Shown piece by piece: positions 20,140 to 45,686 of a DNA stretch of 60,463 nucleotides. The stretch's first letter is position 1. Every line of letters begins with the position of its first letter. The position numbers and the translations under genes are program-made. This DNA comes from a virus (Duplodnaviria; Caudoviricetes). The DNA is taken from positions 1-60,463 of IMG/VR virus record IMGVR_UViG_3300030450_002177. One strand, 5' to 3'. The notes under the pieces are model-generated. The model was not told where the DNA came from. It made no database searches and saw only the letters and a list, made by a program, of their open reading frames with translations.

Positions 20140-21231
20140 ATGAAAGACTACCAAAGACAAAGACTGTATAACTGGGAGAACGCAGAACCTTGGATGGTAA
20201 AGAAAAGCGATCTTACAGAATCAGAGGTGCTTTACATTGTTAAAGAGTTAGACAAAATATTTAGAAAAAATTGGGAAATTAAAGAAACCAAAGTCCAGTT
20301 TTCCAACGGCAGAGGAATGAGCTGGGCAAACAAGTCTAAGATGAAATTAAAAAGAGATTGGGCATTGACTTGGGGTGTGGTCTTGCACGAATATGCACAC
20401 GTTATAACTGACGACAAACACGGACCTGAGTTTGTTGCAACCTTTTGTGGCTTAATCAATCGTTACCACCCAGACAAACCTTGCTTAAAAGAAATGGCAA
20501 AAACTCTAGGTGAATATGGATTGGACTTTAAATCGCTTAAAACTTTAGAAGATAGAGTGGCAATATCCAAACAACCTGACATCGACATATCTAAAGCGCC
20601 GATAGTAAAATCAAAATCAAGAGCTTTAACTCCAGAACAAAAAAGAAATAATAAGTTTAGAGCCAAGACTAAAGAATTATTAAAAGCTTGGGAAAGAAAA
20701 AGATGGGTATTAGGTGTTGATAGTGACCTTCACAAATTTGAATTTGATATTGAAAGAGTATATGACCCTCATTGGGGATTAGAGCTTTATGTCAGAAAAA
20801 CGGGTTGGATATATGATGACAAAATTACAGAGGGATTTGAATGGGAGTTGGAAGATACTTACGATAATTGGAAAGACGCTTATTACTGGTTGGCAAGCAA
20901 TGTTGTTGAAGTGTGGGAACTCTTCTTTACCAGCCCACCCAACGTGATGGGTGAAGACAAACCAACAGAAAGAAAAAGAGTAAAAAAATCTGGTCAAAGC
21001 CAAGAAGCTAAAGACAAAAAAGTTTATTACAACAGAGCCAGAAGGAGATTGGTCAAACATGGCTTTGAAATAATCTACGAAGGTGCGCACAAGAACTACA
21101 GGTCGGTTACGTTTAAAAACAACGAAACTCTGTTTGTGCAAGAAGCACAAGACAGTGCACCACTTAACATAGATTGGAAGAAAGTTTGCACAACCCTAGA
21201 AAATCTAGGCTATAAGGATGCAATTAGATGA
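20140..21231 (+). CDS. SprT-like zinc metallopeptidase domain protein
   Basis: VVLHEYAH...HGPEF. Confidence 0.75.
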   Translation: MKDYQRQRLYNWENAEPWMVKKSDLTESEVLYIVKELDKIFRKNWEIKETKVQFSNGRGMSWANKSKMKLKRDWALTWGVVLHEYAHVITDDKHGPEFVATFCGLINRYHPDKPCLKEMAKTLGEYGLDFKSLKTLEDRVAISKQPDIDISKAPIVKSKSRALTPEQKRNNKFRAKTKELLKAWERKRWVLGVDSDLHKFEFDIERVYDPHWGLELYVRKTGWIYDDKITEGFEWELEDTYDNWKDAYYWLASNVVEVWELFFTSPPNVMGEDKPTERKRVKKSGQSQEAKDKKVYYNRARRRLVKHGFEIIYEGAHKNYRSVTFKNNETLFVQEAQDSAPLNIDWKKVCTTLENLGYKDAIR

Positions 21232-21247
21232 TGTTTCACGTGAAACA
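21232..21247. promoter_or_regulatory. parS: parS-type palindrome TGTTTCACGTGAAACA (copy 1)
   Basis: exact match to the widely conserved chromosomal parS consensus; intergenic; duplicated at 45639. Confidence 0.75.
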
Positions 21248-21288
21248 TTTGCAAAATATTATAAATTTTTATACCATAAGGAGCAAAT

Positions 21289-22092
21289 ATGATTACACCC
21301 AATAAACAAATAAATAACATCTACGGTTATGTTCGAGTGTCTACGACAGAACAAGCCATTAATGGTATTTCAATCGACACGCAAAAAGATTTGATTAACG
21401 AATTTTGCATGACCAAGTTTAATCGCCCAGTTGACGAGTTTTTCGTTGATGCTGGCGTGTCTGGAACCATACCTATTAATGAGCGTGAAGAATCAAGAAG
21501 ATTGACAGACACCATAGACGAACACGACATTGTTATATCGACACGCTTAGACAGATTATCAAGATCGTCTGGCGATCTTTTAAAGACCATACCGATCTTT
21601 GAAGAGACTGGTGTTATCTACTATCTGTGTGAGCAATTTGGCGATATGCCAATTTCTTATCCAAAGAAAAAGAATAAAGCCAGCTTGCAGAGCAAGTTTG
21701 ACATGAACGAGATGGTCAACAAGATTATGGTTATGGTCTTATCGGCAGTGGCTGAAATAGAACACGGCTCTACTGTTGATAAACTAAAAGAAGGTAAATT
21801 GGCTTGGGCACCTAAAGGCTATTCGATAGGTGGCACAGCTCCTTTTGGTTACGATAAGGAAGAAGAAAAGATCAAAACAGGCAAAAGAGTTAAGCGCAGA
21901 ATGAAGTTGGTAGAGAATGAAGAAGAGCAAAAGGTCTTACAGTTTATCTATAAATTGAGGAAAAAGGGCTTAGGCGCAAGAAGAATATCCAAACAGATAG
22001 TGGCTCATTTTCCAGAATACGACATCTTTCCTTACTGGAAAGTACGCAACATACTAGCCAGAAAAGCACAAGGCTTGCATAACGCTAGTTAA
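21289..22092 (+). CDS. serine recombinase (resolvase domain + short recombinase domain)
   Basis: YGYVRVST, DAGVSG, RLDRLSR, GG.APFGY; TTGCAA-17-TACCAT promoter and AGGAG SD. Confidence 0.9.
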   Translation: MITPNKQINNIYGYVRVSTTEQAINGISIDTQKDLINEFCMTKFNRPVDEFFVDAGVSGTIPINEREESRRLTDTIDEHDIVISTRLDRLSRSSGDLLKTIPIFEETGVIYYLCEQFGDMPISYPKKKNKASLQSKFDMNEMVNKIMVMVLSAVAEIEHGSTVDKLKEGKLAWAPKGYSIGGTAPFGYDKEEEKIKTGKRVKRRMKLVENEEEQKVLQFIYKLRKKGLGARRISKQIVAHFPEYDIFPYWKVRNILARKAQGLHNAS

Positions 22093-22119
22093 TCCTAAAA
22101 TTTTAGTTATAATGAAATT

Positions 22120-24030
22120 ATGGCTAAACTACCAACAGGTTATCCTATAACAACTGGTGCCTTTTTGCTTGGGGATCAAGGTTCTAGGGTTGAACCATAT
22201 TATGATTTTGTCAGAGACATAACTGGTGACAGGCGCTCAACAGATGATGAAGATATTTTTGCTCCAGATAGAGATTTATTGGATAAAGTTGTTGAATCAT
22301 ACGAAGAAAACATACCCCTGCCAGACAAAATATTAGCTGGATTCACAATACCGGGCATTGGTATGGATTTAGCAGCAGCTGGAAAGTACGGCAGAGAAGG
22401 CGTTAGAGATATAAAATCTGGATTACAAAGCTTAGGTAGTGGTTTTAGTATGCACAAAGCCCCTAGTCAATTAAAGTCTGGTGTGAAAAATTTAGGCATA
22501 GCCACACTAGCTGGCGTAGGAGCAATACCAGTTGTTGGCGATATAGTGAAGCGAGCAGGCACACCTCTAATAAAAGGCTTGCAAGAATCTTCCGAAATAG
22601 TACCAATATTATCAATAATCAAGAAGTCTGATAATGTAAACCCGAAAAGAGTAAAACAAGCAAAAGATTTATTAGAAGCCTCATCAAATAATTTTGTATA
22701 CAAAGGCGTAGAGCAACAAAGAAGACAGCCCATAGAGGTTTTAGATAATGGTGATGGCACTTTTACTCAACTGGGTGGCTCTTCTACATTACAAGCCTTA
22801 GAAGAATCTGGCGCAACCCATATTCCCATAAAGCGCTTTCCAACCCGAGAGGCTTATCTCGAAAATGAGCCTATCAGAAAAGCTGCAAAAGAAAATAAAA
22901 GAGCAGAAGATGCGAAAACACTACAACCTAAAGTAAACGATCCAACATTTGAAGGACCTGTAAGAGAATTTGGCTCTAAAATGGAAAAAGAGTTTGATAA
23001 GACTTTTAATTTACACCAAGAGGGTCTTAAAACTGTAGATGATTTGTTTGAAACGGCACAAAGAGCCAACTCTCAATTCCAGAAAGAAATAAAAGAAATT
23101 GCTGATGGCTTTAATTTAAAAAGCACCTCAGCCCCCGGCGAACCTATTACTGATCCTACCGTTTTCAAATTTCTTGACAAAATTGATGGTCTTGCTGTTG
23201 ACATAAGAACAGGTCATTATCCCGGCACCGTTAAGCTGCCCAGTAGCATCCTTAGAAAGTCTAAAGCTAAATACAACGGCGATCCTTCACAAATAACTGA
23301 TAGCATGAGAACCAGAATTATAGCTGAAACCCCTGAAGAAGCTGATGCACTAGCCAAAGCAATATCATCTAAATGGGCAGCTAAAGATTCAGGCAATCAA
23401 ATAAACATGTTTGGTTACATAGATCGCAAACTTAATATTCAATACATTGATGATGCTGGAAATAAGATAATAGCAGAAATAAGCATAGTGCCTAGAGCTA
23501 TGGATGATGCAGCTCAAAAAGCACATCCACTATATGAAGCTTACCGTGGACAAATAGCCCTTTATGGCACTTCTGATGTAGATTTATTCCCTTACGCAGC
23601 ACAACAAAGAGCAAAAGTATTGCTTGAGAGACAAAATCAAATTTTTGGCGAAGCTAAACAACATATTCATCCAAGCTGGCTAGGAGAAGACCTTGTTCAA
23701 AAATTTGCTTACGGAGGTGCTGTTTATGCCAATCGAGGCAGCTCAGGAAGTGTGTCACCTATGACACCAAACTTCTTTTCAAACTCTGATTTATCAATGT
23801 TAGCTCCATCAATGGTGATGTCTGCGTATTGTTCACCTGAAGCAACTCGCCAAGAGTCTTCATCTAAAGGCAAAAAGAAAGCTGCTGATACATTGGCTTC
23901 TTCGGAACCAGCTATGACTGCTGGCAAACTTTCCCAAGAAAAATATAAGATTTCTAATTCCATGTCAGACAGTATAACAAAAAGATTCGTAGATTCACCA
24001 ACTGAAGGGGGTCGCAAGGAAATTTTATGA
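22120..24030 (+). CDS. polymorphic-toxin-like protein: pre-toxin TG-like region, ParB/Srx-like domain, RelA/SpoT-type synthetase domain, FAYGG motif
   Basis: IPGIG/AIPVVGD; RQPIEV..NGDGTF..LGG; VKxxxSIxRK, ITDxxRxRII, GYxDxK, AEIxI, HxLYE. Confidence 0.7.
   Translation: MAKLPTGYPITTGAFLLGDQGSRVEPYYDFVRDITGDRRSTDDEDIFAPDRDLLDKVVESYEENIPLPDKILAGFTIPGIGMDLAAAGKYGREGVRDIKSGLQSLGSGFSMHKAPSQLKSGVKNLGIATLAGVGAIPVVGDIVKRAGTPLIKGLQESSEIVPILSIIKKSDNVNPKRVKQAKDLLEASSNNFVYKGVEQQRRQPIEVLDNGDGTFTQLGGSSTLQALEESGATHIPIKRFPTREAYLENEPIRKAAKENKRAEDAKTLQPKVNDPTFEGPVREFGSKMEKEFDKTFNLHQEGLKTVDDLFETAQRANSQFQKEIKEIADGFNLKSTSAPGEPITDPTVFKFLDKIDGLAVDIRTGHYPGTVKLPSSILRKSKAKYNGDPSQITDSMRTRIIAETPEEADALAKAISSKWAAKDSGNQINMFGYIDRKLNIQYIDDAGNKIIAEISIVPRAMDDAAQKAHPLYEAYRGQIALYGTSDVDLFPYAAQQRAKVLLERQNQIFGEAKQHIHPSWLGEDLVQKFAYGGAVYANRGSSGSVSPMTPNFFSNSDLSMLAPSMVMSAYCSPEATRQESSSKGKKKAADTLASSEPAMTAGKLSQEKYKISNSMSDSITKRFVDSPTEGGRKEIL
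23724..23963 (-). CDS. nested antisense gene, candidate immunity/antitoxin (79 aa)
   Basis: globular acidic sequence; TGnTATACT extended -10 located 7 nt before ATG; overlapping plus-strand segment is Ser/Met-rich. Confidence 0.6.
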   Translation of the reverse strand: MELEILYFSWESLPAVIAGSEEANVSAAFFLPLDEDSWRVASGEQYADITIDGANIDKSEFEKKFGVIGDTLPELPRLA

Positions 24031-24164
24031 CTACAAAAGAAGAAGTGGAATATTGTTTAGTTAAAATAGATTCTGTTTTAGCTTATGATTTTATTACCAC
24101 CCCAGTAAAAGAGTCTTTAACTGACATAAAAACACACTTAGAAAGTGTAAAAGCAAGCCTATAA
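24027..24164 (+). CDS. small helical hypothetical protein (45 aa, not in track)
   Basis: AAGGA SD, ATGA overlap. Confidence 0.55.
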   Translation: MTTKEEVEYCLVKIDSVLAYDFITTPVKESLTDIKTHLESVKASL

Positions 24165-24167
24165 AGC

Positions 24168-24869
24168 ATGTCTGTCGGATGGGGTAGGTCTACATGGGGT
24201 TCTGGTCCTTGGGGGGAACCAGCCTCTATTCCTGTAAATGTTAACGTAGCTGGTGTTGCAATCACCAGTGGTATTGGGTCACTAAGCGTTGTAGCTGGTG
24301 CAGTTGTTACTGTAACGGGTGTTGCTATAACATCAGGCTTAGGCGCTTTGAGTGTTGATGCTGAAGCCAATGTTACACCAGCCACTCAAGTAATAAATAG
24401 TGGATTGGGTGCTCCCAGTGTCGATGCAGAAGCTAATGTCAGCGTAACAGGCAGAGCGATAACATCTGGATTGGGCAGTGCCACAGTCGATGCAGAAGCT
24501 AATGTCAGTGTTACTGGACAAGCCATTACCAGTGGTTTGGGTACTGCTACTGTAGATGCAGAAGCTAATGTTAGTGTTACAGGAGTAGCAACTACATCTG
24601 GACTGGGTACTGTTACTGTTTATCACAATGTTATAGTTGAGGTTACAGGACAGGCAATAACCTCTTCCATAGGTGCAGTTTCAACTACTGCTGATGCCAA
24701 TGCAATCCTGACTGGAGTAGCCATTACATCAACAACAGGTTATGTGTTAGTATGGAGTTTAATAGACGAAACACAGACAGCTGGGTATGAAACTATAAAT
24801 GAATCGCAAACACCAAGTTATTCTGGTATTGATGAGTCACAAACAGCAGACTGGACAGAGGTTGCATAA
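24168..24869 (+). CDS. virion fibre/structural protein with ~22-aa repeats
   Basis: WGRSTWGSGPWG N-terminus; VTGxAITSGLGxxxVDAEANV repeats. Confidence 0.7.
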   Translation: MSVGWGRSTWGSGPWGEPASIPVNVNVAGVAITSGIGSLSVVAGAVVTVTGVAITSGLGALSVDAEANVTPATQVINSGLGAPSVDAEANVSVTGRAITSGLGSATVDAEANVSVTGQAITSGLGTATVDAEANVSVTGVATTSGLGTVTVYHNVIVEVTGQAITSSIGAVSTTADANAILTGVAITSTTGYVLVWSLIDETQTAGYETINESQTPSYSGIDESQTADWTEVA

Positions 24870-24913
24870 TTGTGATTTCTGATATAATTTGAACAGTATT
24901 AGGAGAAATATGA

Positions 24914-27745
24914 ATGGCAAGTACATACGTTAATGATTTAAGACTCAACGAAATGGCGACAGGTGATGCGTCAGGAACTTGGGGTACGACCACAAACACA
25001 AACTTAGAATTAATAGCAGAAGCGTTTAGTTATGGCACAGAAGCTATAACAACCAACGCTGATACGCATACTACTACTATTGCAGACGGAGCAACTGATC
25101 CCGGTAGATCAATGTTTCTTAAATACACAGGTGCATTGGATTCTGCCTGTACTGTAACTATTGGACCAAACACAGTATCTAAACTATGGTTTATAGAAAA
25201 CGCTACTACAGGTTCGCAAAACTTAGTTATAAGTCAAGGCACAGGTGCAAATATAACAATACCTGCTGGCGATACTAAAATTATTTATTCTGATGGTGCT
25301 GGTTCTGGTGGTGCTATGGTAGATGCACTAGCTAGTATTTCTGCTGTAGATTTAAAAGTACAAGACGATTTGACAGTTACAGATGATGCTTCAATAGGTG
25401 GAGACTTAACACTTACAGGTAACGGTGATTTTAACGGAGACTTAGACGTAGATGGAACTACAGAAACAGACGCATTAACTATTAATGGCTCGGCAGTAAA
25501 CTACAAAGCGTTTGGTACTTCTTCAATTATGCTTGGCGATAATGCTACAGGAACTATTGATGCTGCTAATTATAATGTTGGATTAGGTGTTGATGTTTTT
25601 GCAGCTTTAACTTCTGGTGATGGGAACATAGCTATTGGTTTTGCAGCATTAGATGCTAACACCACAGCAAGTTATAACGTAGGTATAGGACATAATGCTC
25701 TTGGAGCAACCACAACTGGTCAGCAAAATATTGCAGTTGGAGCAAATTCACTTGATGCAAATACGACTGGTGGAGACAATGTCGCAGTAGGAACAGGTGC
25801 TTTAGGAGCAAATACCACAGCCTCAAATAACGCAGCAGTTGGACATTTGTCTTTAACAGCAAACACTACAGGTCATTCAAATACAGCAGTAGGTTCTTTA
25901 TCACTTGATGCTAATACTACTGGAATTAGAAATACTGCCGTTGGTTTTGAAGCTTTAAGTGCAAATACTGATGGCACACAAAACACAGGAGTTGGTAAAG
26001 GTGCTTTACTTGTAAATACCACAGGTATTGAAAATACAGGGGTTGGTTCAAGTGCTCTTGACGCTAACACCACTGGTTCATATAACACAGCAATGGGACA
26101 GGGTGCTTTAGATGCTAATACAACAGCAGATAGCAACACTGCTTTCGGACACGATGCTTTAAAAGCAAATACCACAGGAACTCTTAACGTGGCAGTTGGT
26201 AAAGATGCTTTGTTAGCAAATACAACAGCTAATTCAAACACGGCAGTTGGCAATATAGCACTTGCTGCAAACACTACAGGAGCAGCGAATACGGCAGTGG
26301 GAAGAAATGCTCTTGGTGCAAATACGACTGCTTCAAATAACGTGGCAGTTGGGCATGGTGCTTTGGAATCTAATACGACAGGTGCTTCAAACACAGGAAT
26401 TGGTTATCAAGCTTTAGATGCGAATACTACAGGTGGTGCCAATGTTGGTCTTGGTTATGGAGCTCTTGGAGCAAATACAACAGCTTCAAATAACGTTGCT
26501 GTGGGCGTAAATGCTATGGAGGCAAACACCACAGGCACACAAAACGTAGCCGTAGGTCAAGCAGCTTTAGACGAATCTAGCACAGCAAGTTATAACACAG
26601 CAGTTGGTTATAGAGCCATGTCTGCAACTACAACTGGACAAGAAAACGTTGCATTTGGAACAGACGCAATGTTAGCAAATACTACTGGTGCTAGAAACAC
26701 AGTTTTAGGTGGCTATGCTTTAAGCGTTAATACAACAGGAGGAAACAACGTAGCGATTGGTTATTCTGCTATGTTAGCAAACACTACAGCATCAGAAAAT
26801 GTTGGTATCGGTGTTTATTGTTTAGACGCTAACACTACTGGGGGAAATAATTGTGGAGTTGGATATAATGTTTTAGGTGCTAACACCACAGGTTCTCAGA
26901 ACACGGCTGTAGGACATACTGCATTAGATTCTAATACTACAGCATCCAATAATACAGCAATGGGATATGGTGCTTTAGGAGTAAACACTACAGGTTCTGA
27001 AAATGTAGCAGTTGGAAGAAATTGTCTTGATGCAAATACCACAGGGCAAGACAATACTGCTATTGGTAATTCAGCGTTAGGAGGCAACACCACAGCTTCA
27101 AACAACACAGCCGTTGGTTCTGCTGCTTTGTTATTATGTACTACAGGAGCAGGTAATACTGCTATAGGAATTAATGCAGGTGGGTCAGTAACTACAGGTG
27201 GTAATCATTTCTTTATTGGGCATGGGGCAGGTATGACTTCTGGACCGGGAGGTACGCCGGGTGGTGCTATAACAACAGGTAATAACGAGGGTGTGATTGG
27301 AAATGGTGATACAAGTAAAATTAATACGCAAGTATCTATAACAGTAGCATCTGATGAAAGAGATAAAACAGACTTTCAAGCTTTAACAGCAGGTTTAGAT
27401 TTTGTAAACGCATTGAAACCTTATACTTACTATTGGGATAAACGAGCCAAGTATGTTGACTGGGAAACTAATCCTGATACAGACCTAAATTCTGTAACCA
27501 ATGATGGAACGCACAAAGAAGACTGGATGGATTTAGGTTTTAAAGCACAAGATGTAGTTGCTTTAGAAGATTCAATAAATCATAAAATATCTAATAAAAC
27601 TAATTTAGTTACCAGTCTATCAGGTGATGGAAAACAATACGCTTTACAATACGAAAAGTTTGTACCAATTCTAGTTAAAGCTTTGCAAGAAGCTGACGAT
27701 AAAATAGATGCGTTGACTACTAGAGTCACGACATTAGAAGGATAA
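24914..27745 (+). CDS. tail fibre with 14-aa repeats and C-terminal S74 intramolecular chaperone
   Basis: WGxxTNxN anchor; NxAVGxxALxANTT repeats; SDERDK, GFxAQDV, terminal coiled coil. Confidence 0.9.
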   Translation: MASTYVNDLRLNEMATGDASGTWGTTTNTNLELIAEAFSYGTEAITTNADTHTTTIADGATDPGRSMFLKYTGALDSACTVTIGPNTVSKLWFIENATTGSQNLVISQGTGANITIPAGDTKIIYSDGAGSGGAMVDALASISAVDLKVQDDLTVTDDASIGGDLTLTGNGDFNGDLDVDGTTETDALTINGSAVNYKAFGTSSIMLGDNATGTIDAANYNVGLGVDVFAALTSGDGNIAIGFAALDANTTASYNVGIGHNALGATTTGQQNIAVGANSLDANTTGGDNVAVGTGALGANTTASNNAAVGHLSLTANTTGHSNTAVGSLSLDANTTGIRNTAVGFEALSANTDGTQNTGVGKGALLVNTTGIENTGVGSSALDANTTGSYNTAMGQGALDANTTADSNTAFGHDALKANTTGTLNVAVGKDALLANTTANSNTAVGNIALAANTTGAANTAVGRNALGANTTASNNVAVGHGALESNTTGASNTGIGYQALDANTTGGANVGLGYGALGANTTASNNVAVGVNAMEANTTGTQNVAVGQAALDESSTASYNTAVGYRAMSATTTGQENVAFGTDAMLANTTGARNTVLGGYALSVNTTGGNNVAIGYSAMLANTTASENVGIGVYCLDANTTGGNNCGVGYNVLGANTTGSQNTAVGHTALDSNTTASNNTAMGYGALGVNTTGSENVAVGRNCLDANTTGQDNTAIGNSALGGNTTASNNTAVGSAALLLCTTGAGNTAIGINAGGSVTTGGNHFFIGHGAGMTSGPGGTPGGAITTGNNEGVIGNGDTSKINTQVSITVASDERDKTDFQALTAGLDFVNALKPYTYYWDKRAKYVDWETNPDTDLNSVTNDGTHKEDWMDLGFKAQDVVALEDSINHKISNKTNLVTSLSGDGKQYALQYEKFVPILVKALQEADDKIDALTTRVTTLEG

Positions 27746-27755
27746 GGAGTAAAAA

Positions 27756-28073
27756 ATGGCAGTAAGCAAAAAATTAGTAAAAACCATACCTTATGTCAAA
27801 TCCAGTAAAGTGGAAGAATGGCATTTGGATATGCAATACGAAAACGACAGCGAAGGCGATGCGACTTATTACAAAACTGTATTCAGGCACACAGCCGTAG
27901 CAGCCGATGGTGATTTTACCAAAGCAGCAAAAGGTTCGTTTAGTAACGCTGACTTAGTAGCGTTGTGTCCTGTATCGCATTGGGATGTAGTATTCGCTAG
28001 TCAGGTGGATTCAGTTATTACGAATCCAACTACTGAACCAGTACCTGACGAGTCATTTGCAGTACCTAGTTAA
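27756..28073 (+). CDS. tail fibre-associated protein
   Basis: directly after fibre gene, AGGAG SD. Confidence 0.55.
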   Translation: MAVSKKLVKTIPYVKSSKVEEWHLDMQYENDSEGDATYYKTVFRHTAVAADGDFTKAAKGSFSNADLVALCPVSHWDVVFASQVDSVITNPTTEPVPDESFAVPS

Positions 28074-28780
28074 TGGCTGAAGTAACAGTACATAATATGC
28101 CTAGTGTCTTTGTTATGGAGACACAGATGCCAGAGAGTATGGTGAATGACTTAAATGATTATCTTGACGAATACGTTGAAGATAAAAACAAGAAGTCATT
28201 AGCTGATACTTTAGTTGGGCAAATAGCACAAGGCGAACAATTATTAATGGATAACGCTGACCCAAGATTAAAAGAATACACAGACTTTGTTTGTGGATTA
28301 GGAGCAGACTATATTAATTTCTTTTCTCAAAATACTGGAGCAACGTTAAAAGCACCTAAAGCAGTAGCTGTAGATGAAACTTGGTCAGTACACAGTTACG
28401 AAGGAGACTATAATCCTATACACGATCACGGTACTAAAACCATAATGGGTATATCCACTACTGGCTGGACTAAAGTACCACAACAAATACTAGATCAACC
28501 TGTAGCTGGATCACCTAACTATTCTTTATACAATACGTCAGGTGATTGCGATGGTTATATAGCATTTCAATATGGGTTGAATCAATTAATGGACACAGAT
28601 AGATTGAGACCACCTCAATCTTTTGTTATGCAACCAGAGGTAGGGAAGTTGTTGGTTTTCCCTTCATGGTTGCAACACATGGTATATCCTTTTAAGGGAG
28701 AAGGTGAAAGAAGAACGGTTGCCTCTAACCTTAATTGTTGGGATGTGCCTCAAGAACCAACACAAGAAGAAGGAGAATAA
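28073..28780 (+). CDS. putative 2OG-Fe(II) oxygenase (TIGR02466-like)
   Basis: NPIHDH, FPSWLQHMVYPF, ERRTVASN. Confidence 0.8.
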   Translation: MAEVTVHNMPSVFVMETQMPESMVNDLNDYLDEYVEDKNKKSLADTLVGQIAQGEQLLMDNADPRLKEYTDFVCGLGADYINFFSQNTGATLKAPKAVAVDETWSVHSYEGDYNPIHDHGTKTIMGISTTGWTKVPQQILDQPVAGSPNYSLYNTSGDCDGYIAFQYGLNQLMDTDRLRPPQSFVMQPEVGKLLVFPSWLQHMVYPFKGEGERRTVASNLNCWDVPQEPTQEEGE

Positions 28781-35177: not shown

Positions 35178-36665
35178 ATGAAAAACGTATCTATAAAAGA
35201 TTTTGATATTTTGTCTGAGCAAGACAAAACAGAGGCTATAGCCCTATTAAACCGTTATGAGCAAATAGATAAGCAGTCTAATTGTCATGTAGATTTCTTG
35301 TCTTTTGTTAAACACATGTGGGGCGACACTTTTATTGAAGGTCGTCATCATAAGATTATCGCTGATAAATTCAATCGTATAGCACAAGGCAAACTAAAAA
35401 GACTAATTGTTTGCTTACCCCCTAGACACTCTAAATCAGAATTTGCTTCAACCTTCTTTCCAGCTTGGATGATGGGCTTAAACGGTTCTTTAAAGATAAT
35501 ACAATGTACACACACAGCCGAACTAGCTGTCAGGTTCGGTAGAAAAGTAAGAAACCTTATTGATAGTGAAGATTTTAAGTTTATTTTTCCTAATTTAAAA
35601 TTACAAGCAGACAATAAAAGTGCTGGTAGGTGGACAACAAACGAAGAAGGTGAGTCTTTCTACGCTGGTGTAGGTGGAGCTATTACGGGTCGTGGTGCTG
35701 ATTTATTGATTATTGACGATCCTCATTCTGAGCAGGACGCTCTTTCTCCTAAAGCATTAGAATCAGCTTATGAGTGGTATACATCAGGTCCTAGGCAGAG
35801 GTTACAGCCGGGAGGCACCATAGTCATAGTAATGACTCGTTGGAGCACGAAAGATTTGGTTGGTAAAGTATTGAAGAAGCAGGGTGAAGAGAACGCAGAC
35901 CAATGGGAAGTGATTGAGTTTCCAGCAATTATGCCAGAAACAGACAAACCATTGTGGGGCGAGTTTTGGAAAAAAGAAGAATTACTTAGCGTTAAAGCAT
36001 CACTTCCAGTAGCTAAATGGAACTCACAATGGATGCAAGACCCTACAGCTGAAGAAGGTTCAATCGTAAAAAGAGAATGGTGGAGAAAGTGGGCTGGAGA
36101 AAATGTGCCAGAATATGATTATGTTATACAAAGTTATGATACTGCGTTTTCTAAGAAAGATACTGCTGACTATTCTGCAATAACAACTTGGGCTATTTTT
36201 ATAGATGAAGAGAACGACATGCCCAATATAATCCTATTAGACGCAAAAAGGGTTAGGGTGGACTTTCCTGAGCTAAAACGATTAGCTTTTGATGAGTACA
36301 AGTATTGGGAGCCAGACTGTGTATTAATAGAAGCTAAAGCATCAGGAACGCCTCTTACACAGGAATTAAGGCGTATGGGAATACCAGTAACTGCTTATTC
36401 CCCAAGCAGAGGACAAGACAAAATTGCCAGAATGAATAGTGTTGCGCCAATCTTTGAATCTGGAATGGTTTGGATGCCAGAAGAAACTTTTGCAGAAGAA
36501 GTGGTTGAAGAGATGGCTAGTTTCCCTTATGGTGATAACGATGACTATTGCGATAGTGCCACGATGGCTTTAATGCGTTTTAGACAGGGTGGTTTTTTGT
36601 CATTAAAAGAAGACTATCAAGATGAGGTAAAATTACTAAAAAGAGACAGGACGGTTTATTATTAA
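35178..36665 (+). CDS. terL: terminase large subunit
   Basis: PPRHSKS Walker A, LLIIDD Walker B, SYDTA / IEAKASG / DDYCD nuclease motifs. Confidence 0.95.
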   Translation: MKNVSIKDFDILSEQDKTEAIALLNRYEQIDKQSNCHVDFLSFVKHMWGDTFIEGRHHKIIADKFNRIAQGKLKRLIVCLPPRHSKSEFASTFFPAWMMGLNGSLKIIQCTHTAELAVRFGRKVRNLIDSEDFKFIFPNLKLQADNKSAGRWTTNEEGESFYAGVGGAITGRGADLLIIDDPHSEQDALSPKALESAYEWYTSGPRQRLQPGGTIVIVMTRWSTKDLVGKVLKKQGEENADQWEVIEFPAIMPETDKPLWGEFWKKEELLSVKASLPVAKWNSQWMQDPTAEEGSIVKREWWRKWAGENVPEYDYVIQSYDTAFSKKDTADYSAITTWAIFIDEENDMPNIILLDAKRVRVDFPELKRLAFDEYKYWEPDCVLIEAKASGTPLTQELRRMGIPVTAYSPSRGQDKIARMNSVAPIFESGMVWMPEETFAEEVVEEMASFPYGDNDDYCDSATMALMRFRQGGFLSLKEDYQDEVKLLKRDRTVYY

Positions 36666-36870: not shown

Positions 36871-39357
36871 ATGGCAATAGAAAGAGTATTAGGAACAGAA
36901 AACGATCCAGATATAGTAGATTTAGACACATCTGTTGAGGTTATACCAGAACAATCAAGACAAGATCAAATAAGAGAAGCTGCTAATATTTTGGTGCAAG
37001 ATGAACAAGTCTTCACTGAAGAAGAATTAATGCAAGAACCAGAACAAGTGCAAGATTCTTTTTTTGATAACTTAGCTGAATTTGTAGAAGAAGACGAATT
37101 AAACAAACTGGCTTCTAACTTGATAGATTCTATAAAAAACGACTTAGAATCGAGAAGCGAGTGGGAAAAGACCTATAAAGACGGTCTCCAATATCTAGGC
37201 ATGAAGTTTGATGAAAGTCGTTCACAGCCGTTTCAAGGCTCTAGTGGTGTTATTCACCCTATTTTGGCAGAAGCCGTTACCCAGTTCCAAGGTCAGGCAT
37301 ATAAGGAGCTACTACCAACTAAAGGACCTGTAAAAACTCAGATAATCGGTCAAAGAACGGCAGAAACAGAATCGCAAGCAGAAAGGGTGCAAGAGTTTAT
37401 GAACTATTACATATTGAATGTAATGGAAGATTATGACCCAGAACTAGACCAAATGCTTTTCTATTTACCTTTAGCTGGTTCAGCCTTTAAGAAAATTTAC
37501 TTTGATTTTGTGTTAAATAGAGCTGTATCTAAATTTATACCACCAGAAGATTTAATCGTACCTTACGAAGCTCCTGACATATCTACAGCTGAAAGAGTGA
37601 CACACGTTATTAGCATGTCTAGGAATGAGGTTAAAAAACAACAATTATCTGGTTTTTACGCAAACGTAGAAATTCCAGAAGAATCTTATGAAGATCGTGA
37701 CGATGTAACTGAAGAAATAGACGAAATTCAAGGAATATCACCGAGTTATACAGAAGATCGCAACCGTACTATATATGAAGTACACACAATACTTGATTTA
37801 CAAGGCTATGAAGACTTGGATGCAGAGGGCGTTCCAACTGGCTTGAAGCTACCATACATAGTAACCATAGATAAACAATCAAGCACAGTTTTATCCATTA
37901 GGCGTAATTTTAACCCTCAAGACGTTTCTAAAAATAAGATTAACTATTTTGTGCAATATAAGTTTTTACCGGGATTAGGTTTTTACGGCTTAGGCTTGTC
38001 GCACATGATAGGGGGTCTTTCTAAGGCAACAACCTCTATTTTAAGACAGCTTATTGATGCTGGTACTTTAGCTAATTTACCAGCTGGCTTTAAAGCTAGA
38101 GGTATGCGTATAAGAGATGAAGCCGATCCATTGCAACCCGGTGAATTTAGAGATATAGATACTACAGGTGGGTCATTGAGAGAAAACTTAATACCATTAC
38201 CAATTAAAGAGCCAAGCAACGTGTTAATGCAACTTTTAGCCATATTGGTTGACTCAGGGAAGCGTTTTGCAGCCATATCAGACATGAATGTTGGTGATAT
38301 GAACCAAGCGATGCCAGTAGGAACTACAGTGGCGTTATTAGAGCGTGGCACTAAAGTTATGAGCGCTATACATAAGCGTCTACATTATGCACAAAGGTTA
38401 GAATTTAATCTTTTAGCTAAAGTGTTTGCAGACTACCTACCTCCTACTTACGACTATGAAACTGGTTCAGGTCCTAGAGATATTAAGCTGAGTGATTTTG
38501 ATGAGCGTGTCGATATTATTCCTGTATCTGACCCTAACATATTTTCTCAGAGCCAAAGAATAACTATGGCACAAGAGCTTCTACAAATGGTTCAATCTAA
38601 CCCACAGGTGCATGGACCAACTGGTATATATGAAGCCTACAGCAGAATGTACAGTGCATTAGGGGTTGATAATATTGAGTCTTTATTACAACCTCCACCA
38701 GACATGACCCCAAAACCTGTAGATGCAGGCTTAGAAAATAGTGGTTTATTGTTAGGACAACCAGCTCAAGCATTTGAACAACAGAACCATGAAGCACACA
38801 TAGAAGCGCATCAAAGTTTATTTTTAACGAAGGTTGTAAAAGAGAATCCACAAATACAATCTTTAATAATAAGTCATGTTATGCAACATATTCAGTTTTT
38901 TGCTAGTCAGTTGGCACAAGAGCAAATGCCTCCTGAATTGCAACAAAGAATAGCTGCTTTACAAGCACAAATGCAACAGGTTACTCCAGAACAGGCGCAA
39001 CAAATACAGCAAGAGCTACAGATGATGATGGATCAAATGAGCTCACCTATATTGGCTGAACTAACCAATCAATTCTTATCTTCAATAGGACAATCAGATG
39101 AGACTGATCCTTTGGTTGCAATAAGACAACAAGAATTAGCCTTAAAAGACAAAGAACTTGATATAGATGCAGAACAGTTTGAATTAAAACAACAAGCTAT
39201 GTCTGACAATGCTATGCTTGATGCACAATTACAACAAAGACGTTTAGATGTACAAAAGACCATAGCTGATGATAAACTTCAAGTAGCTTTAGACAGATTA
39301 CAACAACAGGCTGAATTTAAGCTGATGGAGTTAGAATTAAAAATGAGAGGAAATTGA
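36871..39357 (+). CDS. portal protein (P22-like with Gln-rich barrel)
   Basis: position after terL; F.PG.GFYG.G, DAGTL.N; long Q-rich coiled-coil C-terminus. Confidence 0.88.
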   Translation: MAIERVLGTENDPDIVDLDTSVEVIPEQSRQDQIREAANILVQDEQVFTEEELMQEPEQVQDSFFDNLAEFVEEDELNKLASNLIDSIKNDLESRSEWEKTYKDGLQYLGMKFDESRSQPFQGSSGVIHPILAEAVTQFQGQAYKELLPTKGPVKTQIIGQRTAETESQAERVQEFMNYYILNVMEDYDPELDQMLFYLPLAGSAFKKIYFDFVLNRAVSKFIPPEDLIVPYEAPDISTAERVTHVISMSRNEVKKQQLSGFYANVEIPEESYEDRDDVTEEIDEIQGISPSYTEDRNRTIYEVHTILDLQGYEDLDAEGVPTGLKLPYIVTIDKQSSTVLSIRRNFNPQDVSKNKINYFVQYKFLPGLGFYGLGLSHMIGGLSKATTSILRQLIDAGTLANLPAGFKARGMRIRDEADPLQPGEFRDIDTTGGSLRENLIPLPIKEPSNVLMQLLAILVDSGKRFAAISDMNVGDMNQAMPVGTTVALLERGTKVMSAIHKRLHYAQRLEFNLLAKVFADYLPPTYDYETGSGPRDIKLSDFDERVDIIPVSDPNIFSQSQRITMAQELLQMVQSNPQVHGPTGIYEAYSRMYSALGVDNIESLLQPPPDMTPKPVDAGLENSGLLLGQPAQAFEQQNHEAHIEAHQSLFLTKVVKENPQIQSLIISHVMQHIQFFASQLAQEQMPPELQQRIAALQAQMQQVTPEQAQQIQQELQMMMDQMSSPILAELTNQFLSSIGQSDETDPLVAIRQQELALKDKELDIDAEQFELKQQAMSDNAMLDAQLQQRRLDVQKTIADDKLQVALDRLQQQAEFKLMELELKMRGN

Positions 39358-39679: not shown

Positions 39680-39688
39680 GAGACAATT

Positions 39689-39871: not shown

Positions 39872-40059
39872 TGGACTCTATAGATTTTGCAGAAAAGCTA
39901 GGAAAAGAGCTTAAAAAAAAGGAAGACCAAGTTGCAGAAACTTATATGTCAGGAGCTCTAAAAGATATAGAGCACCATAAATACTTGCAAGGACAATTAG
40001 AAGCTATATACTTTATACAAGATTTTATAAAAAATTACTTTAAGGTAGACAATGAGTGA
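39871..40059 (+). CDS. hypothetical protein upstream of GroES
   Basis: TAATG coupling. Confidence 0.65.
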   Translation: MDSIDFAEKLGKELKKKEDQVAETYMSGALKDIEHHKYLQGQLEAIYFIQDFIKNYFKVDNE

Positions 40060-40495
40060 GCTTGAAATAGCAAAAAATTCAAAGGATCAGGTCGATTTAT
40101 CTTCTGCGTATGTAAGTCCAGAAGAGGTTGTACTAGACCCTACAAAGTTAGATGCTAGTGCTTTAGATCGTATGCCTCAACCAACAGGTTGGAAAATCTT
40201 AGTGCTCCCTTATCGTGGTAAGGGCGTTACGAAAGGTGGAATTGTCTTAACAAAAGAAGCAGTTGATAAAGAATCGCTGGCGACAGTGGTTGCTTATGTG
40301 GTTAAAAAAGGACCACTTTGTTATGGTGATGAAGCAAAATATGGAGCTCCTTGGTGCGAAGAAAAGCAGTGGGTACTTATTGGAAGGTACGCTGGAGCTA
40401 GGTTTAAATTAGATGACGGGGCAGAAGTTAGAATCATTAATGACGATGAAGTTATAGGTACAATTTCTAATCCAGATGATATAGTGAGTTTATAA
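40052..40495 (+). CDS. groES: co-chaperonin GroES/Cpn10-like
   Basis: PTGWKILV, TKGGI.L, RYAG, RIINDDEV. Confidence 0.85.
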   Translation: MSELEIAKNSKDQVDLSSAYVSPEEVVLDPTKLDASALDRMPQPTGWKILVLPYRGKGVTKGGIVLTKEAVDKESLATVVAYVVKKGPLCYGDEAKYGAPWCEEKQWVLIGRYAGARFKLDDGAEVRIINDDEVIGTISNPDDIVSL

Positions 40496-41430: not shown

Positions 41431-41903
41431 TGGCAGATAAAGATATAGATACAGCTAGACACACTCGTGATTCCGAGACACACGATAAAGAAGCTCGTAG
41501 AACACCATGGAGACCAGTTAAGAAGCTGGAGACACCTGAACCACCTGAAGGTTATGTCTACAGATGGATTAGGGAGTCTTTCTTAGGTCAAGAAGATGCA
41601 AATAACGTAAGTTATAGACTTCGTGAAGGTTGGGAGCTTGTACAAGGTTCTGAACTTCCAGATGGTTGGCAACTTCCTACTATAGAAAAAGGCAGATTAG
41701 CTGGTGTTGTACATAATGAGGGACTTATTTTAGCAAAAATGCCCATAGAGACTGTTGAAGAGCGTAGAAGGTATTATGAGGACACAACTCGTAAAGCTAA
41801 CGAAGCGTTAGATAACACAATGTTTAACGATAGCGCACAAGACAACCGATATGTTAAGTATGATTCTAAAAGAGAAACTCAAGTTACTTTTGGAAAAAAG
41901 TAA
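41430..41903 (+). CDS. head-module protein
   Basis: PPEGYVYRWIR...REGWE. Confidence 0.7.
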   Translation: MADKDIDTARHTRDSETHDKEARRTPWRPVKKLETPEPPEGYVYRWIRESFLGQEDANNVSYRLREGWELVQGSELPDGWQLPTIEKGRLAGVVHNEGLILAKMPIETVEERRRYYEDTTRKANEALDNTMFNDSAQDNRYVKYDSKRETQVTFGKK

Positions 41904-41926
41904 TTTAATTAAACAGGAAAACAAAA

Positions 41927-42511
41927 ATGGCTAATAAAGATTCAGCATTTGGCTTAAAACCTGTTCGTATGATGAGTGGAGCACCCTATTCTGGAGGACA
42001 ATCCAGATATAGAATAGCTAGTGGGGCAACTACACCTATATACCAAGGCGACTTAGTTACACAACTAACAGCTGGCGTACTAGGTAGACATGCTGCTACT
42101 GGAACTGTTCCTATCGTGGGTGTGTTTAATGGCGTAAGCTATACTAACTCTGAAGGCGAACAAGTTTTTAAAAACTATTATCCGGGCAGTATTACTGCTT
42201 CTGATATTATCGCAAATGTAATAGATGATCCTAACGTAGTCTTTGAAGTACAAGCAGACGACACTTTTCCAGTCGCCGATCTGTTTGGAAACTTTGACAT
42301 TGTTGATGGTTCACCTGTTGGCGATACGAGCTCTGGACAATCTAATACTGAGCTAGATGTAACTACTGGCGCTACGACAGCTACGTTACCACTCAAAGCA
42401 TTAGATATATCACAGGACCCCGATAACTCAGACGTAGCTTCAGCTAACACCAATGTCATGTGTGTGATTCAAAACCACATTATGGGACAAAAGGGTGCTG
42501 GACTAGCATAA
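41927..42511 (+). CDS. capsid decoration/minor capsid protein
   Basis: MANxDxxFGLKP, beta-rich; directly upstream of MCP. Confidence 0.65.
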   Translation: MANKDSAFGLKPVRMMSGAPYSGGQSRYRIASGATTPIYQGDLVTQLTAGVLGRHAATGTVPIVGVFNGVSYTNSEGEQVFKNYYPGSITASDIIANVIDDPNVVFEVQADDTFPVADLFGNFDIVDGSPVGDTSSGQSNTELDVTTGATTATLPLKALDISQDPDNSDVASANTNVMCVIQNHIMGQKGAGLA

Positions 42512-42522
42512 GGTAGGTAAAC

Positions 42523-43440
42523 ATGGCAATTTCAAGAGCACAATTAGCTGCCGAATTAGAACCGGGATTAAACAGTTTATTTGGAATGGAGTACGATCAG
42601 TACGACAAAGAATATTCTGAAATCTTCTCAATCGAAGACTCATCAAAAGCCTTTGAAGAAGAAGTATTAATCGTTGGGTTTGGTTCTGCACCAACTAAGT
42701 CTGAAGGTCAAGGTGTTGTTTTTGACAACGCTACTGAAAGTTACACTGCAAGATATACGCATGACACGATTGCGTTGGCTTTTGCACTAACTGAAGAAGC
42801 AGTTGAAGATAACCTTTATGATTCTTTAGGAAAGAGATATACAAAAGCACTAGCACGTTCTATGGCTAACACCAAAGAAGTGAAAGGAGCTAATGTACTT
42901 AATAACGCTTTCTCTACCAGTTTCACTGGTGGCGATGGAAAACCTTTAATCGCAACAGACCACCCTCTTTCTGGTGGTGGTACAGCTGCGAATAGAGCTA
43001 CTTCTATGGCTGACCTTAATGAAACTTCATTAGAGGATGCGCTTATTGACATATCTACATTTACAGACGATAGAGGTCTGACAATATCCGTTAACGCATC
43101 GAAACTTGTGGTTCCACCACAACTTACTTTTGTTGCTGACAGAATATTGAACAGCACTCAGCGTTCAGGAACGGCAGATAACGACATTAACGCTATCAAA
43201 AACACAGGGGTGTTACCCGGTGGCTATACTGTCAATCATTATCTGACTGACCCAGACGCTTTCTTCTTACTGACATCTGTTACAGATCAAGGTGAGGGAC
43301 TGAAAATGTTTCAAAGAACAGGTATGGAAACAAACATGGAACCTGATTTCTCTACTGGTAACATACGTTACAAGGCAAGAGAAAGATACAGCTTCGGTTT
43401 TTCAAACTGGAGAGGTGTTTACGGTTCTCAGGGAGCTTAA
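42523..43440 (+). CDS. major capsid protein
   Basis: MAISRAQL..ELEPGLN.LFG; KARERYSFG..WRG; followed by strong terminator. Confidence 0.88.
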   Translation: MAISRAQLAAELEPGLNSLFGMEYDQYDKEYSEIFSIEDSSKAFEEEVLIVGFGSAPTKSEGQGVVFDNATESYTARYTHDTIALAFALTEEAVEDNLYDSLGKRYTKALARSMANTKEVKGANVLNNAFSTSFTGGDGKPLIATDHPLSGGGTAANRATSMADLNETSLEDALIDISTFTDDRGLTISVNASKLVVPPQLTFVADRILNSTQRSGTADNDINAIKNTGVLPGGYTVNHYLTDPDAFFLLTSVTDQGEGLKMFQRTGMETNMEPDFSTGNIRYKARERYSFGFSNWRGVYGSQGA

Positions 43441-43483
43441 TGAACGAATAGAAATACCGTTTATAACTCAAGTATTTCAAAGA

Positions 43484-43511
43484 AAGGGCAACTTCGGTTG
43501 CCTTTTTTTTT
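43484..43511 (+). terminator. intrinsic terminator after MCP
   Basis: AAGGGCAAC-TTCG-GTTGCCTTT + T-run. Confidence 0.88.
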
Positions 43512-43540
43512 GGTCTAAATTTATTGAAATAATATGTATA

Positions 43541-43615
43541 AAAAGTTGTACATTTTTATAAATATATGTATAATGGACATGTGGAGATGATAAATAACAA
43601 TAAAAAGGAGAAAAA
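43541..43615 (+). promoter_or_regulatory. early promoter/leader copy C
   Basis: TTGTAC(43546)-17-TATAAT(43569), leader GTGGAGATGATAAA, AGGAG SD. Confidence 0.85.
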
Positions 43616-43795
43616 ATGAAAAGAAAATATAGAGAGTACAAAGGCATAAAAATTGAGTGTCAAATGACACCAAAGGGTTTTGACAGTGACTACTATAATG
43701 TTATGTATGTTTACAGATTGAATGGTGGTTTAAACGTCAGCCATAAACTTAAAGATGCCAAAGCTAGAATTGACAGATTTGTGGAGAAGGCGTAA
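43616..43795 (+). CDS. small early protein (59 aa, not in track)
   Basis: SD, first ORF behind promoter C. Confidence 0.7.
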   Translation: MKRKYREYKGIKIECQMTPKGFDSDYYNVMYVYRLNGGLNVSHKLKDAKARIDRFVEKA

Positions 43796-43917
43796 TGAGT
43801 AAATTTGCAATTACTTTCCGTCCTTGCGAGGTATGTGAGAATCCGTATGTTGAATACGTTAATGGTGAAACTTGTGGTTGTGAAGTTTGCCATGAAGGTT
43901 ACATGAATCAAGAATAG
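43795..43917 (+). CDS. small Cys-rich protein (40 aa, not in track)
   Basis: TAATG coupling; CxxC...CxCxxC. Confidence 0.55.
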   Translation: MSKFAITFRPCEVCENPYVEYVNGETCGCEVCHEGYMNQE

Positions 43918-43926
43918 GAGAAAAAA

Positions 43927-44262
43927 GTGAAAAATTTACTTAAAGAAATCAAGGAAGCTAAGAAAGAAGCTAAAAACAAAACTCTTAAATACGCTAAATG
44001 TGCTTTTGGTCAAGGCTGGGAAATTATACAAAGAGATAATTCGGGCAGAGAAGAAGAGCTAGCGTCTTTTGAAAGTGGCGAGCCTATTACTCTTAAAGCA
44101 ATTAAGGAAGTAACAGATTCCAATAGAACCTTAACTGCTAAAGAAATTTGGATTGAAGGGAGATATGTTGGAGCTAAAAACCTTTATGATTATATAAATA
44201 ATGAAGATTATATAGACAACGTAAATTATTGGGAAGTTGATCTTCTAAAGGAGGTAGAGTAA
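43927..44262 (+). CDS. hypothetical early protein
   Basis: AGGAG SD. Confidence 0.7.
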   Translation: MKNLLKEIKEAKKEAKNKTLKYAKCAFGQGWEIIQRDNSGREEELASFESGEPITLKAIKEVTDSNRTLTAKEIWIEGRYVGAKNLYDYINNEDYIDNVNYWEVDLLKEVE

Positions 44263-45089
44263 TGATAACTGGCTTGGGCAAAAGATATTACTACATAGGT
44301 TCTGGTTATGAGAACAAAATGTATACCCTTAGAGATTACGTTTCCTATACTAATGGCGAAACTTCTAGTGAAAGCGATAGGCACATGTTAAACCTTTCTA
44401 CTGATTATGAAGAGGCTTACAAAAAAGCCAAAATCTATGCCGAAAGGGATGATGTAACATTGCGTGCTTCTAAGGTTGATAATTTTGCACCTCTTGATCC
44501 AATCATTAGAAAAAGAAAAAGAAGCGCTGAGGAAATAGAAAAGGCTAAAATTGACTTGCAAATAGCAGTTGATGATTTTTTGCAAGCCAACCCGATCTTA
44601 GCACAGAACTTTGAAACTTATGGTGATGCAGATATTGAGGTGAAAAGAGAAATAGGTTTTGCTTTCTATGACATTAAAGACAAGCTTTATAAGTATGGCA
44701 ATCTGTCTGAAGCACAAGTAGATTTTTGTCTTAAAATGGTAGACAGCTATATTACCAGAAAAGAAAATGCAAAAGTATGGGCAGAAGAAAAAGCTGATGC
44801 AGAGCCAGTACCTGTGACTGAAGAAAGAATACAATTTACTGGAGAGGTTATAAAAACTGCATGGAAAGATTACACTTTGCCTAACGGTATGCCAACAAGC
44901 TCACAAAAATGCACTGTTAAAGATGACAGAGGTTTTGTGGTTTGGGGTGGTAATGTAGGTGAAAAGGGTGACAGGGTTACTTTCATGGCTAGAGTAACCG
45001 TTTCAGACAATGACCCTAAATTTGGCTTTTACAAAAGACCTACCAAAATACAACAAATTGAAAAAGCTGGAGTAGAAAACAATGGCTAA
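44262..45089 (+). CDS. early protein with C-terminal OB-fold-like domain
   Basis: YGNLSxxQ; R..F.G.V, DDRGF.VWG, GFYKRPTK. Confidence 0.65.
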   Translation: MITGLGKRYYYIGSGYENKMYTLRDYVSYTNGETSSESDRHMLNLSTDYEEAYKKAKIYAERDDVTLRASKVDNFAPLDPIIRKRKRSAEEIEKAKIDLQIAVDDFLQANPILAQNFETYGDADIEVKREIGFAFYDIKDKLYKYGNLSEAQVDFCLKMVDSYITRKENAKVWAEEKADAEPVPVTEERIQFTGEVIKTAWKDYTLPNGMPTSSQKCTVKDDRGFVVWGGNVGEKGDRVTFMARVTVSDNDPKFGFYKRPTKIQQIEKAGVENNG

Positions 45090-45633
45090 CAAACCAAAAA
45101 AAATAGAGAAGGAGAAAGAAATGCAAAATTTTATTTTTGAATCAAGAAGTGATACTTTTTTTGAATCAGATTACAACGATTATGGAATACGTTGTGAAAT
45201 CACTGTTCTAGGTGAAGAAAAATATAGGGTTGAACTTATAGGTCTTGACTGCGAAGTGATTAAGTGTTTTACCTGTAAAACAACTGACGAATGTAAAACT
45301 GAAGCTTATGAAGAAGCTAAATTCCTGAAGGAAATGAATGAAGTGACTTGTGGTAATCTTACAGTAGATGATTACGAATTACATCATTCATGGTGTTATG
45401 CCCATACTTCAGACATAGAGCGACTTAAAGAGATTTGTTCTAAGTATGATGACAATAAACATAAATGCGAATTAGAAAGTGCCTATGAATATGAAGATGA
45501 AAACAAAATATTAGATAAAAAAATTCGTGAGGATAAGTGGCAAGCTGATTTTGAAAAAATGCTGTCTTCTAAAAACATAAAAGAAATGAAGGTAAATGTA
45601 CTCAAAATGATTCAAGACCACAAAAAAAATTAA
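45082..45633 (+). CDS. hypothetical early protein
   Basis: ORF; alternative start 45121 has AGGAG SD. Confidence 0.65.
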   Translation: MANKPKKIEKEKEMQNFIFESRSDTFFESDYNDYGIRCEITVLGEEKYRVELIGLDCEVIKCFTCKTTDECKTEAYEEAKFLKEMNEVTCGNLTVDDYELHHSWCYAHTSDIERLKEICSKYDDNKHKCELESAYEYEDENKILDKKIREDKWQADFEKMLSSKNIKEMKVNVLKMIQDHKKN

Positions 45634-45638
45634 TTATA

Positions 45639-45654
45639 TGTTTCACGTGAAACA
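45639..45654. promoter_or_regulatory. parS: parS-type palindrome TGTTTCACGTGAAACA (copy 2)
   Basis: identical to 21232-21247; palindrome extends to 22 bp (45636-45657); intergenic. Confidence 0.75.
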
Positions 45655-45686
45655 TATCTAAAATATACAAATAAAACGAGGTATTT

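Follow-up and report, generated by a model that had tools for sequence, protein, structure and literature searches.

Two chromosomal-type parS sites in a podovirus genome without ParA or ParB suggest recruitment of host ParB

The IMG/VR virus record IMGVR_UViG_3300030450_002177, analyzed here over its entire length of 60,463 bp (hereafter the window), contains two copies of a 16-bp palindrome, TGTTTCACGTGAAACA, that has the sequence of a bacterial chromosomal parS site, the target of the partition protein ParB. The record is rated 100% complete by CheckV, is linear without end repeats and has a G+C content of 38%. A mismatch scan of the whole window located the palindrome at 21232-21247 (site 1) and 45639-45654 (site 2), both exact and neither assigned to a strand, with a copy-to-copy distance of 24,407 bp and no third match within 3 mismatches. 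The initial annotation of this genome had described two perfect copies about 24 kb apart with a tiny chance expectation, and both statements held: the expected count was 2.2-2.3e-5, calculated from base or dinucleotide composition, and the probability of finding two or more copies was ~2.5e-10.

Both copies are intergenic and were located just past a stop codon, as had been annotated, the gaps in the open reading frame (ORF) listing being 0 and 5 nt. The first base of site 1 directly follows the TGA of ORF 20140-21231 (+), encoding a 363-aa ORFan, and 41 nt separate the site from the ATG of ORF 21289-22092 (+), which encodes a small serine recombinase of the resolvase/invertase type (267 aa; Pfam Resolvase, E = 3.8e-20) that also matches PHROG integrase/invertase families. 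Site 2 is separated by 5 nt from the stop codon of the preceding ORF 45082-45633 (+, 183 aa) and by 32 nt from the ATG of the following ORF 45687-45830 (+, 47 aa, basic), both ORFs being known from the ORF listing and without an assigned function. The term "early cassette" given to these positions is plausible, as judged from the ORF layout; a rightward unit and a leftward block of small ORFs diverge here, and the first ORF of the rightward unit precedes site 1. Site 2 belongs to an accessory cassette (43477-45900, +), a 2.4-kb insert between the major head protein gene (42523-43440, +, assigned by sequence search) and the next virion gene. This cassette has a promoter-like site at 43547-43574 and a strong terminator at 45852-45887 with a 15-bp stem and a T tail. 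Relatives differ in the length and content of the interval that follows the head gene, and no fetched relative covers the cassette with a site. Paralogy between the proteins of the two site cassettes was rejected, with no blastp match better than E = 0.07. The promoter-like region of the site 2 cassette (43517-43604) is an inverted copy of 19451-19538, the pair forming an AT-rich promoter-like inverted repeat of 88 nt with 86% identity. A repeated AT-rich promoter-like element was also seen as a 36-nt direct-repeat family at 9723, 19481, 60041 and 60091. From their sequence, the repeated AT-rich elements that open blocks of small ORFs are probably early promoters of the phage.

The palindrome TGTTTCACGTGAAACA is the sole palindrome of at least 12 nt that is present twice in the genome. 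At both sites the symmetry extends over 18 bp (ATGTTTCACGTGAAACAT), i.e., the 16-mer plus a flanking A/T, and at site 2 it reaches 22 bp with the flanks. Both sites agree with the 16-bp inverted repeat TGTTNCACGTGAAACA, which we take to be the published consensus of chromosomal-type parS; the comparison made here uses sites from Pelagibacteraceae genomes. The sites are embedded in a 29-nt direct repeat of 90% identity (21231-21259, +, and 45638-45666), consisting of the palindrome and an AAAATAT at equal offset in both copies. Half-sites were not in clear excess in the window, with five seen and 3.3 expected, and four of the five belong to the two full sites. No near-identical DNA for either site region was found in GenBank phages by megablast.

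From its sequence, the window is the whole genome of a marine podovirus of the HTVC023P type. Its size (60.5 kb), G+C content (38%), portal, terminase large subunit (terL) and head module all agree with this group, whose means are 58.8 kb and 42.1% G+C in the available text of the source (PMC9599517). The terL gene is located at 35178-36665 (+; PHROG terL, E = 2e-105) and the gene of the SU10-type portal protein, which served as the query for finding relatives, at 36871-39357 (+). The nearest cultured phages are the Pelagibacter phages HTVC023P and HTVC027P, with portal identities of 44-48%, followed by Roseobacter, Caulobacter and cyanobacterial podoviruses.

An exact scan of IMG/VR detected at least 119 stretches with the 16-mer, versus 2 for a control consisting of the letters of TGTTTCACGTGAAACA read backwards, which is also palindromic. 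In 31 of the 119 matches listed, the encoded terL, portal or head module is related to that of the window, and tblastx single linkage of the same matches placed 38 in the cluster of the window family and 27 in a second cluster, with 34 singletons. A scan with the 18-mer gave at least 117 stretches; 69 new loci were among the matches listed, 13 of them in the window family. The flanks of the family sites were mutually unrelated and their G+C content ranged from 37 to 63%. In two sets of relatives (L119/L142/L145 and L126/L166) the 16-mer formed an island of identity amid diverged flanks. These findings indicate that the 16-mer itself is the unit under selection. Complete relatives had one to three sites each, including the variant TGTTCCACGTGAAACA with a change at position 1, and some family sites were located inside large ORFs. 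Distant relatives, with a terL identity of 27%, had three to five sites arrayed upstream of terL.

The same sequence was detected in the candidate host group. Exactly one site within 1 mismatch was present in 26 of 41 Pelagibacteraceae genomes and none of the 41 had more than one; the 15 genomes without a site may reflect the incompleteness of metagenome-assembled genomes (MAGs). The site was located ~1.8 kb upstream of the ParB helix-turn-helix (HTH) region in all five single-contig genomes checked, and thus adjoins parAB in a single-centromere arrangement. One-mismatch variants of the TGTTCCACGTGAAACA type, found in the phage relatives, are the sole site in some Pelagibacteraceae genomes. 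The identification of the 16-mer as chromosomal parS was therefore borne out, since Pelagibacteraceae carry the exact sequence or a one-mismatch variant beside parB. The probable marine hosts do not sporulate. According to a 2026 preprint, ParA->ParB is one of the gene adjacencies conserved in Pelagibacter. The surroundings of 12 Pelagibacteraceae parS sites resembled those of the phage sites in nothing but the 16-mer, and capture of host fragments therefore does not explain the phage sites. We infer that a ParABS-bearing bacterium, probably a member of the Pelagibacterales, is the host.

No protein that could read the sites was identified in the phage. Six-frame searches of the window for ParB_N (PF02195), HTH_ParB (PF17762), AAA_31 (PF13614) and CbiA (PF01656) were empty at E<=1, in agreement with the annotated absence of ParA and of an HTH-bearing ParB. 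ParB_N above the cut-off was found in none of 31 family records, and in one of 55 parS-bearing viral records overall. The serine recombinase was encoded in just one of 13 family genomes, that of the window, and four complete parS-bearing relatives are without it; it was therefore rejected as a general binder of the site. In a gene co-variation test of ORFs of at least 50 aa, five complete parS-bearing genomes were compared with four without a site, and no ORF was present in all five and in none of the four, the best being 4/5 versus 1/4. Given this result, the single recombinase among 13 genomes and the lack of ParB_N in the 31 records, no phage-encoded reader tracks the site. A core or highly divergent phage protein is a possible reader. 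The 363-aa ORFan that ends at site 1 has one homologue cluster only (93% identity), matched nothing in Pfam, PHROG or PDB, and was found in the ESM Atlas in unnamed viral clusters only. Its single-sequence AlphaFold2 model was uninformative (predicted local distance difference test score, pLDDT, of 43), and a ParB hidden in this protein is rejected only provisionally.

The presence of parS in family relatives, its identity with the host site and the absence of phage ParAB together make recruitment of host ParB, which had been proposed in the initial annotation, the best-supported explanation; the possible pay-offs suggested with it are carriage, positioning or titration of ParB. As parS is also present in many relatives without reader proteins, the phages probably borrow the DNA-partition protein of the host. 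We consider it quite probable that host ParB loads on the phage DNA. The more specific proposal, that the two 16-mers are host-type parS serving as orphan cis-elements by which a lytic-looking podovirus hitch-hikes on ParB, has in our estimate an even chance of being correct. A lytic lifestyle is suggested by the missing tyrosine integrase (none at E<=1 in a six-frame search of the window), with the small serine recombinase being present. After entry, host ParB would nucleate on the parS sites of the phage, and the ParB-loaded DNA would become cargo of the host ParABS machinery. The phage DNA could then be positioned on the nucleoid and passed to both daughter cells if division preceded lysis, which would amount to hitch-hiking in the manner of phi29 without spores. 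The selected benefit would presumably be inheritance or positioning.

A sister clade was sampled by taking the 80 best IMG/VR loci to the terL of locus L202, all with terL identity of at least 83%. These loci were not chosen by the site, while the query itself was chosen for having one. A perfect site was detected in 41 of the 80 loci, and allowing one mismatch raised the number to 43. Upstream sequence of 150 nt or more was available for 71 loci, of which 41 had the site less than 400 nt ahead of terL, and the sites sit 35-170 nt before this gene. A FastTree phylogeny of terL comprised 76 loci (two were dropped for internal stops and two never entered), 66 of which were scored. The site trait needed at least 7 changes on this tree, versus 17-21 in those label shuffles whose values were printed (ten of 200). 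The site is therefore inherited, yet has been repeatedly gained or lost. The order in this clade is a conserved promoter-like motif, then the site, then the terL start; members without a site kept the promoter-like motif and had other sequence in place of the site. The region upstream of terL in the window had neither the promoter-like motif nor a site. The fixed position before terL suggests a local regulatory or packaging-related role in the sister clade.

Other features were observed around terL in these loci. The motif GGGCCATGTTTnnCACAAAnAAT ... GATATGA, followed by AGGGGCCCC near the terL start codon, is present in loci L311-L390 with or without parS, and may from its sequence be a clade-specific late promoter with a ribosome-binding region. 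The first part of the GGGCCATGTTTnnCACAAAnAAT motif resembles a parS half-site. Contigs ended less than 500 nt upstream of terL in 29 of the 80 loci and less than 500 nt downstream in ~4 of 80. Two contigs from different samples (L311 and L312) had an identical end point, 73 nt ahead of parS. These ends suggest a physical terminus of the genome, or an assembly-breaking repeat, next to the sister-clade site.

Several observations weigh against hitch-hiking on host ParB by the window phage. The closest clade was sampled as 80 loci around the portal gene (portal identity 73-98%, 1.0 Mb in total), and none of these had a perfect site. Whole records were checked for 21 loci extending past the fetched stretch (19 of the 80 portal relatives plus L083 and L084), and a site within 1 mismatch was found in only two, both the nearest kin of the window. 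In one of these, L083, site 1 is perfect and the upstream protein is 93% identical to that of the window; both nearest kin also have a site with one mismatch within a coding region absent from the window. The complete genomes G107 and G117 had no site. None of 14 GenBank relatives had a perfect site, and the only one with a one-mismatch site was HTVC027P, where CGTTTCACGTGAAACA lies between convergent genes. The sites are thus dispensable and patchy near the window. As signs of carriage, a repressor, a replicon and an integrase are all missing from the genome, and the resolvase is confined to the window lineage. The host assignment is affected as well, since the nearest cultured relatives, the two Pelagibacter phages, share only the portal identity given above and four related contigs were assigned to MAGs of as many taxa, so that binning gave no indication of the host. 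Finally, the fixed position of the sister-clade site between the promoter-like motif and terL is not predicted by segregation alone.

As the closest relatives are mostly without the site, it is best described as an accessory element that is gained and lost. A scan of related phages for parS enrichment had been proposed as a check of ParB recruitment, with absence from relatives counting against it. Enrichment was found across the wider family and not in the closest clade; the absence is real for the nearest clade but counts for less than the repeated occurrence of the site in the rest of the family.

ParB titration and ParB-gated transcription are live alternatives to hitch-hiking, and the three are computationally inseparable. 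Extra parS copies can reportedly titrate ParB (PMC6238139), and the phage sites might be decoys that draw ParB off the host centromere and block segregation or division in the course of host takeover. Replicating phage DNA would offer two sites per copy against one on the Pelagibacteraceae chromosome, and the arrays of distant relatives offer more; however, the one to three sites of complete relatives make a modest decoy, the phi29 precedent concerns segregation, no division phenotype is known, and nothing separates titration from carriage. We regard a decoy as unlikely, though worth keeping in view. ParB-family repressors act on plasmids, and host ParB at the site might likewise gate phage transcription as an operator, comparable to the Spo0A boxes of phi29. 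The sister-clade arrangement, with the site directly after the promoter-like motif, fits such a role, as do the short distances of the window sites to the next start codons (32-41 nt), their common downstream AAAATAT and a -35-like hexamer within site 1. This hexamer belongs to a sigma-70-like TTCACG-16-TATTAT overlapping site 1, a 9/12 match which was the sole one seen against 1.6 expected by chance; an overlapping promoter at site 1 was rejected on this count, and no equivalent match on the + strand was found at site 2. Sites of other relatives lie inside ORFs or after the portal gene, and as ParB is constitutive it is hard to see what signal it would carry. An operator function is accordingly given a low probability.

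The remaining explanations do not involve host ParB. The palindrome might be bound by a phage protein, such as the serine recombinase (as a res- or gix-like site), the terminase small subunit (as a pac site) or a ParB-like 363-aa ORFan. Res sites often lie upstream of recombinase genes, and site 1 lies 41 nt upstream of one; the 29-nt repeat common to both sites is a direct one, the site adjoins a terS-like gene and terL in some relatives, and the ORFan gave no usable model. Nevertheless, the site is present in many family genomes without the recombinase, in contrast to the co-occurrence expected of a res or gix site, no ORF co-varies with it, and neither ParB domain was detected at E<=1 in the window. 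The 16/16 identity to the host centromere across phages of 37-63% G+C would moreover be a coincidence, and a phage binder therefore appears improbable. The least probable explanation, which we consider very remote, is that the sites have no function and represent chance, a captured scrap of host DNA, an RNA hairpin or a terminator. The closest relatives lack the sites and both copies are in variable accessory regions, as such an explanation would require, but the probability of two chance copies is minute and the site recurs and is conserved in the family. Capture of host DNA was ruled out by the unrelated flanks of the 12 Pelagibacteraceae sites, and the terminator or hairpin reading was rejected because no terminator-like call was made at site 1 or site 2.

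Apart from the genes named above, the window encodes a VapE-type primase, a RecE-like exonuclease, RusA, several 2OG-Fe(II) oxygenases, a lysis cassette, an SU10-type adaptor and a tail-fibre-like protein. The four 2OG-Fe(II) oxygenase-like genes are located at 1577-2290, 3074-3796 (-), 11858-12400 and 28073-28780, and two of them form a 126-nt inverted repeat of 71% identity. The tail-fibre-like gene (943 aa) contains ~21 copies of a 51-nt (17-aa) periodic repeat at 25645-27146, and its product ends in a C-terminal Peptidase_S74 chaperone domain. A 15-nt tandem repeat with at least 6 copies was found at 54371-54505 inside a 544-aa ORF of the virion region. The 636-aa ORF following the recombinase (22120-24030) had a sub-threshold match to RelA_SpoT (E = 3.4e-4, 21.3 bits, cut-off 27) and no PHROG match.

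So far, the use of Spo0J by phi29 has been seen as particular to spore-formers. The present results place the same 16-bp device, without a phage ParB, in a globally abundant marine podovirus family, and in one clade over half of the sampled loci have the site while the probable hosts are unable to sporulate. If host ParB loads on the sites, lytic marine phages would have a 16-bp coupling to the segregation or division of the host chromosome. More tentatively, and with the odds rather against it, orphan host-type parS may be a widespread, gained-and-lost element in abundant ocean podoviruses and phi29-like phages, giving gene-free, ParB-driven inheritance or division control in slow-growing, non-sporulating hosts such as SAR11. 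This would provide a molecular basis for the carrier-state coexistence of pelagiphages and their hosts, and would bear on the persistence of pelagiphages alongside SAR11. Because the cultured Pelagibacter phage HTVC027P has an intergenic near-perfect site, the idea is directly testable.

The closest functional parallel is phi29, whose parS sites were reportedly bound by host Spo0J in the work of Meijer et al. from 2005. Like phi29, the window is a virulent-type podovirus with multiple host-type parS and no ParA or ParB of its own, ParB binding being predicted in its case. Unlike phi29 (~19 kb, protein-primed), it belongs to an unrelated 60-kb lineage defined by SU10-type portal and terL, and its SU10-type portal and adaptor and its HTVC023P/HTVC027P kinship place it apart from the phi29-like phages. 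The probable hosts being marine and non-sporulating, spore entrapment is not a possible pay-off, unlike in phi29. According to the available parts of two sources, phi29 has five parS sites, to which host Spo0J binds, and exploits the segregation machinery for spore entrapment (PMC2731898, PMC9437464). The second-largest cluster of the exact scan was phi29-like (the 27 among the 119 matches listed), with Phi29_MCP, connector and Gp16 domains in L090 and ParB_N in none of the nine records searched. Contigs of this kind (L090, L097, L104, L148, L154, L189 and others) were 12-18 kb long, some with inverted terminal repeats, and had one to four perfect parS each, which extends the published phi29/Spo0J case to many uncultured relatives.

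Other known systems share single aspects with the window. P1 with ParAB-parS and N15 with SopAB are plasmid-prophages with their own ParA, ParB and centromere sequence. The window resembles them in having a centromere on a phage genome, with a proposed use for inheritance without integration, and differs in encoding neither ParA nor ParB. Compared with the chromosomal ParABS centromere, its 16-bp palindrome is identical and the variants tolerated are those of Pelagibacteraceae; however, its sites are on a virus, with neither oriC nor parAB near them in the 60-kb genome, and their reader must come in trans. In phi29, Spo0A boxes are sites for a host regulator that suspends the lytic cycle; for the window, only the CtrA-type pattern was tried, and CtrA-type boxes were not enriched (1 seen versus 2.0 expected). 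The CtrA "lytic deferment" is described in the accessible text of PMC9437464 as co-option of a host regulator by lytic phages. The window is similar in having putative sites for a host DNA-binding protein on a phage that probably infects Alphaproteobacteria, with a proposed coupling to the state of the cell, and different in the protein and site concerned. SGI1, in the available portion of PMC10954446, hijacks the parABS system of IncC plasmids. This is likewise a mobile element using the partition proteins of another replicon, as proposed here, but SGI1 is an integrative mobilisable element with a helper plasmid, whereas the window is a virus and the system is that of the chromosome.

A full-text search covering open-access papers and bioRxiv yielded no paper on chromosomal parS in pelagiphages or other non-phi29 phages, and the available text of the HTVC023P-type genome paper makes no mention of parS or ParB. 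Given the phi29 precedent, it is already known in principle that a virulent phage can have host parS while lacking parAB, and the novelty is therefore lowered. What is new in comparison is the presence of host-type parS in an unrelated, abundant marine podovirus family with non-sporulating probable hosts, together with a strong positional habit upstream of terL in one clade.

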